Shown piece by piece: positions 32,401-35,102 of a DNA stretch of 61,340 nt. The DNA comes from Aplysia californica (Eukaryota). The stretch lies in assembly GCF_000002075.1 (NCBI RefSeq), contig NW_004797358.1, positions 1,495,825 to 1,557,164 on the forward strand, given 5' to 3'. Numbering within the stretch: position 1 is the stretch's first letter; each line of letters starts with the position of its first letter. The position numbers and the translations under genes are program-made. Below the pieces are notes generated by a model that searched no databases, had not been told where the DNA came from, and was given only the letters and a program-made list of their open reading frames with translations.

Positions 32401-34435
32401 GACACTCATTGATCTATCATTTGCTCTCTTAGTTTCTTTTCATAGGTCCAAGCAGACATTACCATTGTTCCTATCTCTCGTTATGATGTTCCTTGTTATA
32501 TCACCAGTATTTCTTGACATAATTACATCAGTCTTTTCTGTTCCACTCCAAAGACTTGGAGGGGGGGGCGTAGAGGAATTCATTCAGTAGCTACAAGACT
32601 ATATGTATGTGCCATCATTCGTATCTGTTCCTTGTGTCCATTATTATTATTTCCCTTATTTGTCAATCATATTCATCTGCTTTATTTCTGTTCCGTTTCT
32701 GTCCCAGTCATGCATCGTCTGACGTATGTCTTCATTGTGCTTGATTATTAAAGTCCTCGTCAAGTCACAAAGGGTGTTGACATTTATTTAGACATGGCTT
32801 CACTAATTTTTCTCCCACAACAAACTTTATCTAGATTTTATTCCCACAAACCATCCATTGTACCTGCCATCGTGAACCATTATTCACTAATCCGATAGCA
32901 TGCGACCAATCAACGGCCATCTTTCATACCAACACAAGCGTAGTTCGCATGCACATGTGTCTACTCTGGTGAGTGTCAGGATGGTGACTGTGTGTGTGTG
33001 TGTGAGTGTCCGGGAGCCATCGGTCCAGGATGGAACGTCGAAGACAAAAAGCATCACAGCCCCCTCCCCTTCCCCCCCAAGCAACAGATCAAATCATGAT
33101 TACAATGATAAGCTAGTCTTGACGTAGATCTACGTAATGAATTGTGCGCTGGTTTATGGAATCAAAAGTTACACAGCAACACAACTTTTTGGCAAACAAC
33201 AGAGATGACACAGGCGTGCCTTAGAACGTAATATAATGTCTTTTTTTAAAAACAGCTCATAATATAAGCAGGCATTCCAGGCATTACTTGTTACTTCTCT
33301 TTATTACTTGCCCAGGGCCTGTAATTATTTAGGTCTACACAAAACCTCATGTTTGCTATATATATACAATGAACACTTGGATTCAACGAGATTTTAGGTC
33401 AGGCCCGGCGACCTCGTTGAATTCGAGTTCAACTGTACAGTCCCAGCCACTATAAAAGAAAAGTAAAGTCACCTTGGGCCTAGGTCATTATGTCCATTTT
33501 TTAAAAGAGAGCAGCCCATGCCAACCATTAATGATCATAGCCCAGCAGTCGAAATGGACCCCAATTCAACTATGTTGACATTGTCCAGTTTTAACTCATT
33601 CGCTACGCCGAGCCGTGGGGGGCTGCGCGGCTAAAGTGCCGTCAGTACGCTAAGCCGCCCCCGGCGGCTCGAGAACCGACGTTCAACTTTAGCTTGGTTT
33701 CTATTCCAATCCACATATCCATGTTAAAATAAAGGTCATAATATAAAGTTGACTTCCGGGTCAAGCGTTTCCACCGAAAATCGGAAGTTTTGATTCAGTT
33801 TTGAAACACGATTTCGAAGTTTATGCGACATTGTTTAATCGCGAAGCCCAAATTATAGCCCAGACACCAGTCTTAGTACTTTTACACAACAAAATGTATC
33901 ATTATTTTGCTCATTAAAGAAATGTAGGACTCTTCTTTATAATATTGATACTACTGGACCAAATTGCCAAGGCACTGTAATTGAGAAATCAGTATTTTTG
34001 AGTGCTAGATCTAAGCCTAGATCTAAACAGTCAAAATATTTTTTTTCTCCCCAAAATCACTACTTTTTGGTGAATTTTCTCCAAAAGTACCACCCAAAAC
34101 ATGTAATGGTTTATTCCAAATGCAATTCTGAATAATTCCATATAAAATACGAGTGTTTTTTGTTTGTTTGGGATCCTTTTTTCAAAATTATTTTAAAAAA
34201 TTATTTTTTTCAATATCGGAGGTTATGATCCAAATGTACAAATATTATAGAATGAATGTAAATAACTGCTCATTTTTCAATATTTTCCTGTTCTAGATCT
34301 AGATCTATATACAGTTATTATCAGTTATGGTTATTTATAATTTATACATACCCGTGCTACACTTTCGCTTTCCGCAGCCGAACCGTAACATAATTCATCG
34401 GAAGCTAGTATGCCAACGCCAGCTGAACCTGCCAT
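8276..34435 (-). CDS. ALDH16A1: Aldehyde dehydrogenase family 16 member A1, 15 coding exons, 815 aa, predicted non-catalytic
   Basis: Exons (minus): 34435-34352, 25935-25833, 23905-23779, 23150-22972, 22287-22031, 21250-21098, 18816-18619, 17982-17884, 16990-16748, 15819-15674, 14463-14296, 12969-12765, 10480-10295, 8969-8846, 8451-8276. All introns GT-AG, phases consistent, total 2448 nt. Full ALDH fold, then a linker and a second Rossmann-type domain ([17 protein letters not shown]...[12 protein letters not shown]...[13 protein letters not shown]...NFKRTWVN...IWLPMG), the ALDH16-specific architecture. Confidence 0.95.
8846..8969 (-). CDS. ALDH16A1: ALDH16A1 exon 14
   Basis: [41 protein letters not shown]. 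Confidence 0.93.
9678..10021. mobile_element. TTAA-targeted MITE (piggyBac-like)
   Basis: TTAA|CTCACCCAGCCCTA ... TAGGGTTGAGTGAG|ATAA imperfect TIRs. Confidence 0.5.
10295..10480 (-). CDS. ALDH16A1: ALDH16A1 exon 13
   Basis: [54 protein letters not shown]...FQQ. Confidence 0.92.
11531..11610. repeat. perfect 40-bp tandem duplication
   Basis: TAAACATTAAATCAGTGGAGACAGAATATCAGAATTATGA x2. Confidence 0.9.
11760..12679. mobile_element. Tc1/mariner-type MITE, family A copy 1
   Basis: TA|CAGTCGAACCTG ... CAGGTTCGACTG|TA; subterminal ACGGAAACCTGT repeats; homologous to 42919-43805. Confidence 0.85.
12765..12969 (-). CDS. ALDH16A1: ALDH16A1 exon 12
   Basis: [21 protein letters not shown]...[17 protein letters not shown]. 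Confidence 0.93.
14296..14463 (-). CDS. ALDH16A1: ALDH16A1 exon 11
   Basis: [24 protein letters not shown]...[16 protein letters not shown]. Confidence 0.92.
14640..15200 (-). mobile_element. RTE-clade LINE 3' fragment (degenerate RT C-terminus)
   Basis: [11 protein letters not shown]...[11 protein letters not shown]...[15 protein letters not shown]. Confidence 0.75.
15674..15819 (-). CDS. ALDH16A1: ALDH16A1 exon 10 (inter-domain linker)
   Basis: [54 protein letters not shown] donor. Confidence 0.88.
16748..16990 (-). CDS. ALDH16A1: ALDH16A1 exon 9
   Basis: [36 protein letters not shown]...VWVNGH...[13 protein letters not shown]. Confidence 0.93.
17884..17982 (-). CDS. ALDH16A1: ALDH16A1 exon 8
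   Basis: [39 protein letters not shown] donor. Confidence 0.88.
18619..18816 (-). CDS. ALDH16A1: ALDH16A1 exon 7 (contains the degenerate catalytic-Cys position)
   Basis: [44 protein letters not shown]...AKAEGAE. Confidence 0.92.
19642..19993 (+). mobile_element. tRNA-derived CORE-like SINE with L2-like tail
   Basis: A box TGGCCTAGTGG, B box GGTTCGAATCC, core GTTGTGTCCTTGGGAAAGGCACTT...GGGTACC, (TTA)n tail. Confidence 0.85.
20339..20460 (+). mobile_element. 5' fragment of the same SINE family
   Basis: GTGGCGTCGGTAG...GTTGTGTCTTTGGTAAAGACAC. Confidence 0.6.
20819..21071. mobile_element. MITE with 16-bp perfect inverted ends (Kolobok-like)
   Basis: AATTGGTCGCTTTTAA (20819-20834) / TTAAAAGCGACCAATT (21056-21071). 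Confidence 0.6.
21098..21250 (-). CDS. ALDH16A1: ALDH16A1 exon 6
   Basis: [51 protein letters not shown]. Confidence 0.92.
22031..22287 (-). CDS. ALDH16A1: ALDH16A1 exon 5
   Basis: [12 protein letters not shown]...ALAMGNTV...[13 protein letters not shown]...[15 protein letters not shown] donor. Confidence 0.92.
22972..23150 (-). CDS. ALDH16A1: ALDH16A1 exon 4
   Basis: [17 protein letters not shown]...[10 protein letters not shown]...GWKPY. Confidence 0.9.
23506..23743. mobile_element. piggyBac-like MITE
   Basis: TTAA|CCCTATCCGTACG ... CGTACAGATAGGG|TTAA. Confidence 0.8.
23779..23905 (-). CDS. ALDH16A1: ALDH16A1 exon 3
   Basis: [46 protein letters not shown] boundaries. Confidence 0.9.
24152..24652 (-). 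mobile_element. tRNA-derived SINE, second family, (AAAC)n tail
   Basis: Minus-strand head GGGCTCTCGTGGCCTAGAGGTTAAGG, central GCACGTTATAGATCCC motif, tail GACCTTATGCAGTTGCGAGCGCCGTAAAACC + (AAAC)n; a + strand copy lies at about 41510-41742. Confidence 0.7.
25833..25935 (-). CDS. ALDH16A1: ALDH16A1 exon 2
   Basis: [38 protein letters not shown] acceptor, GTAGAG donor. Confidence 0.9.
27168..27388 (+). repeat. 5' LTR (221 bp)
   Basis: Matches 32571-32790 except about 5 substitutions and 1 indel; starts TAGAGG, ends TTTATTTA. Confidence 0.93.
27410..32412 (+). pseudogene. gag-pol polyprotein of the Gypsy element (zinc knuckles, aspartic protease, RT, RNase H, integrase), disrupted
   Basis: CNYCGKLDH...[14 protein letters not shown] knuckles; ADTG protease; [28 protein letters not shown]; RNase [11 protein letters not shown]; integrase HSAHQG..C..C, ADYF, SDGGPEF, RAEVGVK. 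In-frame stops at 29981-29983, 31893-31895, 31905-31907; C-terminal PRRSAR tail is in another frame; two N gaps. Confidence 0.9.
29005..29404. other. assembly gap (others at 30193-30920, 50829-50960, 57490-57890)
   Basis: Runs of N. Confidence 0.99.
32571..32790 (+). repeat. 3' LTR (220 bp)
   Basis: Direct repeat of the 5' LTR, preceded by [14 protein letters not shown] (32558-32568) and CG. Confidence 0.93.
34352..34435 (-). CDS. ALDH16A1: ALDH16A1 coding exon 1
   Basis: [28 protein letters not shown] then GTATGT donor; resembles the ALDH16 N-terminal YGPAPES motif and joins in frame to LWLDKH. Confidence 0.85.
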
Positions 34436-35027
34436 TTGTTTGAGCTTTCAAAACTGTTTGCTCATCACCAACAATACAAAAACAAGTGGAAGAGCTTCAG
34501 GCACCCTTGGAAGCAGCAAGAAGCCAAGCAGCAGCCTTTGAAAAGGTCAAAGTTTGTAAGGTCATACAACTTGACAATACTTGACATGGGTCAAATAATA
34601 CGCTTGATCTCCCCTGGCAAAGAACCCTTCCTCATTTTGATATTGCCAGAGAAGCTTTATCACAAGTTTAAATAGAAAACAATTTTTTAAAAGCAGTTAT
34701 TTAGACTCAGTTCAATGATTTTATACAATAAGGTATTAAAATATATACTTAATTTTTTTTCAACACAACACAAACAATTGGTATAACATTTATTACCCCC
34801 CTATCCCCACTGAGGTGGGGAACTTGTCTTTTATTATTTAGCCTACGGCGGACACAAAAACTGGCTGAGACGTTTCTATGAGGGGAGCTAATGAGCGTCA
34901 CCGGAAGTAGTATGGACGATGGTGTCTCACGACATGATTCCTTCATGAAACAGAGATAGTCGACGTCTGACTTACTTTATTCTTCGCATTTTTATACTAT
35001 ATATCTAGATCTACTGCTTATTTGGAA
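34436..35027. promoter_or_regulatory. bidirectional promoter / 5'UTR region shared by ALDH16A1 and PIH1D1
   Basis: 592 bp between divergent ATGs; ETS/GABP-type CCGGAAGT at 34901-34908; local CpG enrichment 34840-34990; no clear TATA box. Confidence 0.75.
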
Positions 35028-35102
35028 ATGGAAAGCATAGGCGATCCTAGCTCAGATAACTCCCTATCTGATGCATTCATCAAGAACCTCTTGCTGAACT
35101 CT
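35028..35102 (+). CDS. PIH1D1: PIH1D1 coding exon 1
   Basis: MESIGDPSSDNSLSDAFIKNLLLNS; GAAATGG Kozak-like context; GTGAGT donor. Confidence 0.78.

Follow-up and report, generated by a model that had tools for sequence, protein, structure and literature searches.

The head-to-head ALDH16A1-PIH1D1 gene pair of Aplysia californica: a likely shared promoter, a probably old neighborhood, and a predicted dead enzyme

Introduction

What keeps two unrelated genes back to back over long periods of evolution: the DNA between them, or a partnership of the proteins that they encode? The question is raised by a 61,340-nt stretch of the Aplysia californica genome (hereafter, the window), in which ALDH16A1 and PIH1D1 diverge from a short spacer. 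The human genes are presumably arranged in the same way, with PIH1D1 and ALDH16A1 adjacent and divergently transcribed at 19q13.33. A first-pass annotation of the window proposed that the pair may date back to the bilaterian ancestor, and that it hints at a functional link between ALDH16A1 and R2TP/HSP90. Our own reading, which we hold with moderate confidence, is that the two genes likely share one compact promoter, that their neighborhood is likely an old bilaterian one held together by DNA and not by a protein partnership, and that the snail ALDH16A1 is a predicted dead enzyme whose activity was lost separately from that of its reptile and mammal counterparts.

The locus and its two genes

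The head-to-head layout was confirmed, with ATGs at 34435 (minus strand) and 35028 (plus strand) and 592 bp between them, and so were the gene identities: the named A. californica proteins map exon for exon on opposite strands. The DNA is of non-vertebrate origin, and not from a vertebrate-proximal lineage, a possibility that the annotation had raised against its own proposal. Residues 1-815 of ALDH16A1 (P0003, 815 aa) fall exactly on 15 minus-strand blocks running from 34435 to 8279, and residues 1-315 of PIH1D1 (P0123, 315 aa) on 10 plus-strand blocks running from 35028 to 51058; the introns of both genes are GT-AG in 23/23 cases. The flanks contain 86 open stretches, none with a Pfam match, and Rfam gave no match anywhere in the window. 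The coordinates of all features are collected in Table 1.

The 315-aa PIH1D1 protein has the PIH1 plus CS architecture (PF08190 at 30-189 and PF18201 at 240-312) and the length of ~300 aa that are typical of this R2TP subunit. Judged by its matches, it is probably PIH1D1 itself and not PIH1D2, DNAAF2, or DNAAF6: all 7 of its PDB matches are PIH1D1, and the named database matches likewise. Two lysines in the first strands and a later arginine-bearing motif align to mouse and human PIH1D1; we take these basic residues to be the binders of the phospho-DSDD/E motif.

Similarly, the 815-aa ALDH16A1 protein belongs to ALDH16 by its length, close to the ~800 aa usual for the family, and by its architecture, with two Aldedh stretches and an extra C-terminal Rossmann-like domain. 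It matches the bacterial ALDH16 6MVR over residues 15-810 (E 4e-184), the ALDH16 match outscores other ALDH families by >100 orders of E-value, and the protein groups with animal ALDH16 proteins in our tree. A fold model (mean pLDDT 71.6, pTM 0.48, built on 9 sequences) has ALDH16 at Foldseek ranks 1-3, the top fold match being Loktanella ALDH16; with a pLDDT of <50 at residues 298-306, the model confirms the family only and is uninformative about the active site.

Both first introns (8.4 kb in ALDH16A1 and 3.1 kb in PIH1D1) carry insertions, as had been annotated. The ALDH16A1 intron holds a 5.6-kb LTR retroelement whose 221-bp LTRs (27168-27388 and 32571-32790) are 97% identical and which has a 5-bp target duplication; the PIH1D1 intron holds a MITE-like element and a tandem array (263 bp, three copies). 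The LTR and MITE-like elements are context, outside the gene pair proper.

Table 1. Features of the ALDH16A1-PIH1D1 locus, in window coordinates
Feature	Position	Strand	Details and basis
ALDH16A1 coding span, including stop	8276..34435	-	15 coding exons, 815 aa; exact mapping, splice sites, full-length 6MVR match
Phe303 codon, in place of the catalytic Cys (Cys295 of 6MVR)	18811..18813	-	Aligned to 6MVR, the C295A mutant 6MVU, and 97 Cys-bearing rows
Trp174 for oxyanion Asn, Ile197 for NAD-binding Lys	22190..22261 (residues 174-197)	-	Alignment columns
LTR retroelement, ALDH16A1 intron 1, antisense to host gene	27168..32790	+	Reverse transcriptase and integrase Pfam matches
Palindrome TAGATCTA cluster	34006..35013		Copies at 34006, 34018, 34294, 34300, and 35006
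ALDH16A1 first coding exon, residues 1-28	34352..34435	-	ATG at 34435, GT donor at 34351
ATG-to-ATG spacer, 592 bp	34436..35027		Both promoters and both 5' UTRs presumed from position
CpG-richer part of spacer, PIH1D1 side, likely promoter core	34806..35027		10/11 spacer CpGs; 222 bp
ETS-type motif CCGGAAGT (putative)	34901..34908	+	127 bp before PIH1D1 ATG, 466 bp from ALDH16A1 ATG
PIH1D1 coding span, including stop	35028..51061	+	10 coding exons, 315 aa; exact mapping, PIH1 and PIH1_CS domains
PIH1D1 first coding exon, residues 1-25	35028..35102	+	Exact mapping
MITE-like element, PIH1D1 intron 1	35192..35479		288 bp, 29-bp inverted ends, arms 97% complementary

One promoter or two?

The spacer has a GC content of 37% and a CpG o/e of 0.53, without a CpG island. 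Its CpGs are gathered next to PIH1D1 (Table 1), and an AT-rich stretch at 34658-34805 (20-26% GC) parts this segment from the ALDH16A1 side, where 370 bp contain one CpG and no ETS motif. The motif annotated at 34901 is there: CCGGAAGT is read at 34901-34908, and we take it to be of the ETS type. When the spacer is shuffled 3000 times with its dinucleotides preserved, 19 of the shuffles contain the motif, and because 3 of the 4 copies in the window lie outside the spacer, the single copy is weak evidence of function. The TAGATCTA cluster comprises 5 of the 11 copies in the window (binomial p 6e-7, for an interval picked after seeing the data).

The spacer is also free of any recognizable transposon, as annotated, and nothing else in the window resembles it (best other match E 0.1). 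We considered this as a sign of constraint and rejected it, as 592 bp without an insertion is unremarkable. Splice matrices built from the window's own 23 introns score several candidates on both strands, none of them a clear leader intron within the spacer. Please note that 592 bp is the distance between divergent start codons, and that an upstream non-coding exon could lie beyond it.

Mammalian bidirectional promoters with GABP/ETS sites (PMC4089025) offer a comparison. Like them, the Aplysia genes diverge, with start codons within 1 kb of each other and the CCGGAAGT motif between them; unlike them, the Aplysia spacer is AT-rich without a CpG island, and has one off-center putative ETS site together with the TAGATCTA cluster. 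The human ALDH16A1-PIH1D1 pair was not found among the 1,447 human head-to-head pairs (starts <1 kb apart) published in the same work, a list in which the positive control, HSPE1-HSPD1, was found.

We suggest that the CpG-richer core, with its ETS site near PIH1D1, would open the chromatin and fire both ways, and that ALDH16A1 would use a longer leader from this common core. A break within the short spacer would then harm both genes, so that the pair would rarely split, yet could, as it probably did in Lymnaea; enhancers of their own may tune each gene alone, as in human cells.

It is also conceivable, if unlikely, that two independent one-way promoters stand back to back, and that the ancient pair persists because breaks seldom hit a short gap. 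The crowding of 10/11 CpGs and the ETS motif into the 222 bp nearest PIH1D1, which the AT-rich stretch sets apart, suits this arrangement, as do the decoupling of the human genes (see below), the absence of the human pair from the <1-kb list, and the probable Lymnaea break. Against it, the ALDH16A1-side 370 bp, with 1 CpG and no ETS motif, would resemble a transcribed leader more than a second promoter, and the spacer stayed short while the first intron of ALDH16A1 expanded to 8.4 kb and that of PIH1D1 to 3.1 kb. A single shared promoter is the reading that we prefer.

How old is the neighborhood?

Besides Aplysia, both genes were traced in six invertebrates by means of contigs and accession numbers. 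They are consecutive in two sacoglossan slugs, Elysia chlorotica (EGW08_015306/015307, on one 303,861-bp contig) and Plakobranchus (GFN80697/GFN80698, on one 660,286-bp contig), where accession numbers give order and not orientation. In the nemertean Lineus they share one contig of chromosome size (23,943,388 bp), with XP_064627750 and XP_064628386 being 636 accessions apart, a gap compatible with adjacency or with separation. The pond snail Lymnaea has both genes, their N-termini whole, on different contigs (459,545 and 346,643 bp), and here the linkage is probably broken. The genes also lie on different contigs in Nematostella (18,096,078 and 13,717,364) and in Ephydatia (7,374,308 and 7,447,571). 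Adjacency is thus seen in three euthyneuran gastropods including Aplysia; 4/6 of the other invertebrates are not shown to be adjacent, and no non-gastropod invertebrate is among the adjacent ones.

A metagenome scan yielded 23 PIH1D1 loci, most of them short or without upstream DNA, and none with an ALDH16 match. Loci L001-L004, from one organism, have no such match in the 8.8-10 kb upstream of PIH1D1, a result that a short first exon could escape. Most of the 28 PIH1D1 cluster representatives offered no pair for comparison, many coming from species that have no ALDH16 row. For vertebrates, two articles (PMC4015844, PMC3530029) place both genes together in one region, with the orientation not given; the animals covered are coelacanth, Xenopus, human, lizard, gar, and teleosts. 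Neither gene was found in the supplements of PMC7817982, PMC11676430, PMC7530604, and PMC2871058, which is uninformative; a control term was also missed in PMC7817982 and PMC2871058.

The proposed bilaterian age is plausible, and its support patchy: two of six traced invertebrates (both close kin) have the genes adjacent, one has them on a shared contig, and three have them on separate contigs. The annotation had named missing linkage in intermediate taxa as evidence against itself, and Lymnaea, where the pair is probably broken, is such a taxon.

Could the adjacency have arisen twice, in euthyneuran gastropods and in vertebrates, by reshuffling within a common ancestral chromosome? The adjacent invertebrates are all close kin, Lineus shares a contig only, the cnidarian and sponge genes are unlinked, and L001-L004 lack an ALDH16 match in the 8.8-10 kb examined (with the short-exon proviso given above). 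By our own rough estimate, two particular genes would come together again in head-to-head order with a probability of 6e-4 (pool of 800 genes). For any single pair this low figure speaks for inheritance; over 1,447 human pairs, about one such chance encounter would be expected. Truly conserved pairs far outnumber chance ones, however, with ~600 known (PMC3514665), making inheritance likelier a priori; we regard a double origin as improbable, and the bilaterian age of the pair as likely.

Of the human pairs among those ~600 ancient microsyntenic ones, 54.8% have the head-to-head orientation (Irimia et al. 2012, PMC3514665). The conserved ancestral 5'-5' pairs, such as HSPE1-HSPD1 and HADHA-HADHB, resemble ours in that unrelated genes lie head to head across a short gap, and in being common to distant bilaterians, if the human order given above holds. 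Ours differs in being unlinked in a cnidarian and a sponge and probably broken in Lymnaea, and in that a common function and co-expression find no support here. Taken alone, the pair is one more candidate among several hundred ancient head-to-head pairs.

Do the two proteins work together?

The pair might instead be kept since ALDH16A1 works with PIH1D1 or R2TP/HSP90 and needs matched expression, as the first-pass annotation had suggested. The neighborhood is long-lived, functionally linked ancient pairs do exist (e.g., HSPE1-HSPD1), and human ALDH16A1 is reported to exert its effects by binding other proteins (maspardin, HPRT1, thioredoxin). The evidence at hand does not favor the link. In the one human perturbation considered, SMARCA4 knockout in PC9 cells, ALDH16A1 fell ~6-fold (logFC -2.7) and PIH1D1 stayed flat (4.72, 4.53 vs 4.55, 4.85, 4.59; PMC12405490), so that the two genes decouple in this case. 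A shallow co-immunoprecipitation list for ALDH16A1 (9 high-confidence rows including the bait) contains no PIH1, RuvB-like, or HSP90 protein; it also misses the known partner SPG21, and so is weak. PIH1D1 binds the phospho-motif DSD[D/E], which occurs in 0/123 ALDH16 proteins. In addition, our literature search found no paper joining ALDH16A1 and RPAP3, and Nematostella and Ephydatia possess both genes without linkage. We consider such a partnership very unlikely, and favor a neighborhood held by its DNA.

A predicted dead enzyme with a probable history of its own

The annotation described ALDH16A1 as a non-catalytic scaffold. In the Aplysia protein the nucleophilic cysteine (Cys302 in human ALDH2 numbering) is indeed absent, with no Cys in residues 296-307; the oxyanion Asn and the NAD-binding Lys are replaced as well (Table 1), and the general-base Glu is retained as Glu269. 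Judged from its sequence, we predict a dead enzyme. For comparison, the bacterial ALDH16 of Loktanella was reportedly described by Liu and Tanner in 2019, with structures 6MVR/6MVS/6MVU. The Aplysia protein matches it over the full length and shares the extra C-terminal domain, but where Loktanella ALDH16 has Asn165, Glu261, and Cys295 and is active on hexanal (PMC12041015), Aplysia has Trp, Glu, and Phe. Human ALDH16A1 is a pseudoenzyme, reported to lack the whole triad (reviews PMC8160307, PMC10650815; PMC12405490). Like it, the Aplysia protein combines the full-length ALDH16 architecture with a missing catalytic Cys and a predicted binding role; unlike it, Aplysia keeps Glu269 while losing Cys, Asn, and the NAD-binding Lys.

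Was this state inherited? We compared 123 ALDH16 proteins, a set with no mammal or teleost, so that human inactivity is taken from the reviews. The catalytic Cys is present in 97/123, including limpets, abalone, bivalves, sharks, and frogs. Cys, Asn, and Lys are missing in all eight gastropod-clade rows, seven of which have Glu, whereas all 18 reptile rows lack Cys and Glu, and Lys is present in 17 and Asn in 10 of them. The two Cys-less groups branch apart in the tree (SH-aLRT 97-100), and Cys-bearing rows stand between them. Their joint origin is rejected at a modest AU p of 0.035, and gastropod monophyly is not (p 0.29), in trees from quick searches without bootstrap and without another ALDH family as outgroup.

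The Cys is retained by intervening lineages (frogs, sharks, lamprey, amphioxus, bivalves, and limpets), so that the loss in gastropods was likely separate from that in reptiles and mammals. It may comprise one event or two, as Babylonia, on a long branch, is the only caenogastropod sampled. A second, Cys-bearing ALDH16 copy in snails is unlikely within the best 120 of 7,789 matches. We rejected the idea that the pseudoenzyme state goes back to the last ancestor of snails and human. Similarly, an ALDH16 scaffold that was always non-catalytic finds no support, with 97/123 rows Cys-bearing and the ancestor predicted to be an active enzyme. We found no paper on catalytic loss in snail ALDH16A1.

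This likely independent loss matters more than the pairing, as it bears on the job of human ALDH16A1. The human protein has been connected with gout, maspardin, and thioredoxin turnover, and reviews treat inactivity as a vertebrate trait. A separate snail loss, beside active-looking limpet and abalone orthologues, offers a natural paired comparison, in which surfaces retained in both dead lineages would mark a non-catalytic function; binding partners could be tested in Aplysia, Lymnaea, and Biomphalaria, all of them practicable as models.

A bolder version, to which we give very little credence, is that a hidden scaffold role of ALDH16 goes back to the bilaterian ancestor and is tied to R2TP/HSP90 through the promoter-sharing PIH1D1. 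Selection would then preserve this role, carried by the C-terminal dimer domain, and catalysis would have been lost independently in higher snails and in amniotes, and perhaps in part in the elephant shark. Within our preferred reading of a DNA-held pair, gastropod ALDH16A1 may nonetheless persist in a binding or scaffolding role, since conservation is higher in its C-terminal dimer-forming domain than in the enzyme module: among columns fixed in Cys-bearing rows, the gastropod group retains 103/125 in the C-terminal domain and 22/26 in the linker, against 78/127 in the NAD domain and 56/94 in the catalytic domain.

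A genuine head-to-head pair

ALDH16A1 and PIH1D1 form a genuine head-to-head pair, which joins a known class. The flanking exons match Pfam Aldedh (minus strand) and PIH1/PIH1_CS (plus strand), and single-exon searches lead to Aplysia californica ALDH16A1 (P0003, 815 aa) and PIH1D1 (P0123, 315 aa), both on one 1,720,321-bp contig. The divergent starts, 592 bp apart from ATG to ATG, that the first-pass annotation had read from the sequence are borne out by exon-for-exon mapping on opposite strands, with GT-AG at 23/23 introns, and the insertions in both first introns are as it described. 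It had also allowed for a vertebrate-proximal source, which falls away with both proteins being from Aplysia californica, and for another PIH paralogue on the plus strand, which by homology appears unlikely because all 7 PDB matches of P0123 are PIH1D1.

Features mapped in the window
Feature	Position	Strand	Details
ALDH16A1 coding blocks	34435 down to 8279	-	gapless mapping of P0003, 15 blocks
PIH1D1 coding blocks	35028 up to 51058	+	gapless mapping of P0123, 10 blocks
LTR retroelement, full-length-looking	27168-32790		221-bp LTRs 97% identical, 5-bp target duplication
Tandem array	37312-38097		3 copies of 263-bp unit, 86% matches, directly ahead of PIH1D1 exon 2

How old is the pair?

The pair was traced by shared contig and by gene or accession numbering in the six other invertebrates with both genes. 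Two have them as neighbours by number alone, each on one contig: Elysia chlorotica (EGW08_015306/015307) and Plakobranchus ocellatus (GFN80697/GFN80698). Lineus longissimus has both on one 23,943,388-bp contig, with accessions 636 apart, and in the other three (Lymnaea stagnalis, Nematostella, and Ephydatia) they are on different contigs. Both Lymnaea proteins have a whole N-terminus; a break exactly within the spacer is possible because the assembly is fragmented, but we consider a true split likelier. Of 150 PIH1D1 representatives, 24 were looked up and three (Lineus, Ephydatia, and Nematostella) could be paired with an ALDH16 row; the others, partly from species with no such row, gave no pairing.

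Human ALDH16A1 and PIH1D1 are presumably adjacent and divergent. The accessible parts of PMC4015844 and PMC3530029 describe, at region level only, a conserved stretch that contains both genes in coelacanth, Xenopus, human, lizard, gar, and teleosts. Neither gene was found in the PMC4089025 supplement, whose sheet of human pairs with starts <1 kb apart (1,447 according to the available text) does contain HSPE1-HSPD1. Irimia et al. (PMC3514665), as far as accessible, report nearly 600 ancient pairs, 54.8% of them head to head in human, and ALDH16A1-PIH1D1 may already be among those tabulated.

By a rough estimate, two given genes would become head-to-head neighbours again by chance with a probability of 2.5e-5 genome-wide, or 6e-4 within an 800-gene pool. 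Given this estimate, the nearly 600 ancient pairs known, and the gene-order tracing, inheritance from the bilaterian ancestor, as the first-pass annotation had proposed, is likely. Adjacency in Elysia and Plakobranchus and the shared vertebrate region speak for that age, whereas the different contigs in Lymnaea, Nematostella, and Ephydatia speak against it. There is no support for a pre-bilaterian origin, and the two genes seem able to come apart.

Elsewhere, a metagenome locus (L004, 9923-10834) carries an intronless PIH1D1 gene with no ALDH16 match in the 9.9 kb upstream. One database protein (P0372, 1,008 aa) has CDT1 domains followed by PIH1 domains; this fusion or merged gene model hints that, in some lineage, PIH1D1 lies next to a different gene.

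Is there a functional link?

The suggestion of an undescribed functional link, with ALDH16A1 acting alongside R2TP/HSP90, is unsupported. The DSD[D/E] motif is the docking site for PIH1D1, and it is found in 0/123 ALDH16 proteins (the best 120 of 7,789 matches plus three bacterial). Expression is decoupled in human cells: in the available part of PMC12405490, SMARCA4 knockout lowers ALDH16A1 (logFC -2.7) while PIH1D1 is flat in the same table. The ALDH16A1 co-IP list there (nine high-confidence rows, bait and thioredoxin among them) has no PIH1, RuvB-like, or HSP90 entry, a weak negative because the list is shallow and also without SPG21. The literature searched yielded no co-mention of ALDH16A1 and RPAP3, and its accessible passages naming both ALDH16A1 and PIH1D1 have them only as region markers or list entries.

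Loss of catalytic residues in ALDH16

With the catalytic Cys column set by alignment to the bacterial structure 6MVR and its C295A mutant, the residue is kept in 97 of 123 ALDH16 rows (the best 120 of 7,789 matches plus three bacterial). Among these are Lottia, Patella, Haliotis, Gigantopelta, bivalves, cephalopods, Owenia, and Lineus; crustaceans, echinoderms, hemichordates, amphioxus, Ciona, lamprey, sharks, Erpetoichthys, and amphibians; and cnidarians, sponges, and Salpingoeca. The 26 rows of this set that lack it comprise 18 reptile rows (17 squamate, three being isoforms of one species, and one turtle) and eight from a gastropod group that we take to be Apogastropoda (Aplysia, Physella, Lymnaea, Biomphalaria, Elysia, Plakobranchus, Babylonia, and database protein P0004). 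The gastropod rows are also without the oxyanion Asn and NAD-binding Lys (8/8), with Glu kept in 7/8; in the reptiles Glu has become Gln (18/18) and Lys is kept in 17/18.

In trees of 49-row and 22-row subsets spanning the named taxa (quick searches, SH-aLRT only), the two Cys-less groups are separate branches with Cys-bearing rows between them. A tree constrained to join these two groups is rejected (AU p 0.035), but one constrained to unite all gastropods is not. Because Babylonia is a long branch, the gastropod loss may have occurred once or twice. An independent, predicted loss of catalysis in snail ALDH16 is apparently undescribed. The gastropod C-terminal domain keeps 103/125 columns fixed in Cys-bearing rows, and the NAD and catalytic domains 134/221, as would be expected if a dimer scaffold were kept while the enzyme decays; a fold model of the Aplysia protein gave family assignment only. 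A second, predicted-active copy in these snails seems unlikely: no Cys-bearing row among the best 120 of 7,789 matches is named from them, and none of 32 unlabelled Cys-bearing rows checked has a Cys-less snail as nearest named relative.

Vasiliou et al. reportedly noted in 2013 that ALDH16 of frog and invertebrates has a Cys that mammals and fish lack, so repeated loss within vertebrates may already be known. Human ALDH16A1 is called a pseudoenzyme in the accessible parts of two reviews (PMC8160307, PMC10650815), and PMC12041015, in its available part, describes vertebrate ALDH16 as without the triad altogether, which the Cys-bearing frog, shark, and lamprey rows contradict. No paper on gastropod catalytic loss was found in the mostly open-access literature searched; one paper listed there (PMC5097826, pearl oyster) names ALDH16 once.

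Callorhinchus milii ALDH16 (P0198) keeps Cys but, unlike other sharks, is without the Asn, Lys, and Glu, possibly a third, partial decay. Squamate ALDH16A1 (P0174, P0209, and others; about 1,185-1,243 aa) has a ~400-aa N-terminal extension, in at least 15 rows, with a Myb/SANT-like DNA-binding domain (PF13837; E 5.5e-19, 3e-20). This may be a fusion specific to the lineage or a gene-model join that recurs, and it would alter the ALDH16A1 5' end facing PIH1D1.

Spacer and candidate promoter

The spacer (37% GC, CpG o/e 0.53) is asymmetric: the 222 bp adjoining PIH1D1 hold 10/11 CpGs and the ETS motif at 34901, followed by an AT-rich stretch and then a CpG-poor ALDH16A1 side. A motif scan agrees with the first-pass annotation on this ETS site; its motif occurs in 19/3000 spacer shuffles and has three further copies in the window, all outside the spacer. 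The lopsidedness would fit a putative promoter core close to PIH1D1, with ALDH16A1 having the longer leader. Splice scoring of the spacer gives several candidate sites on both strands, none standing out as a leader intron.

The palindrome TAGATCTA adds to what had been observed before: 5/11 window copies fall within 34006-35013 (binomial p 6e-7, for an interval picked post hoc). It could be a word associated with promoters in the Aplysia genome, perhaps a gastropod one. Counting one-mismatch variants as well, 12/40 window copies are in 33000-36600, around both first exons (33125-36475).

On the ALDH16A1 side, two AGGTCA half-sites with 15 bp spacing (34544-34564) are probably chance, since the window has 38 copies of this hexamer. 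The LTR identity and target duplication of the tabulated retroelement, with a purine run ahead of its 3' LTR, indicate that the element inserted recently; it contains two N runs.
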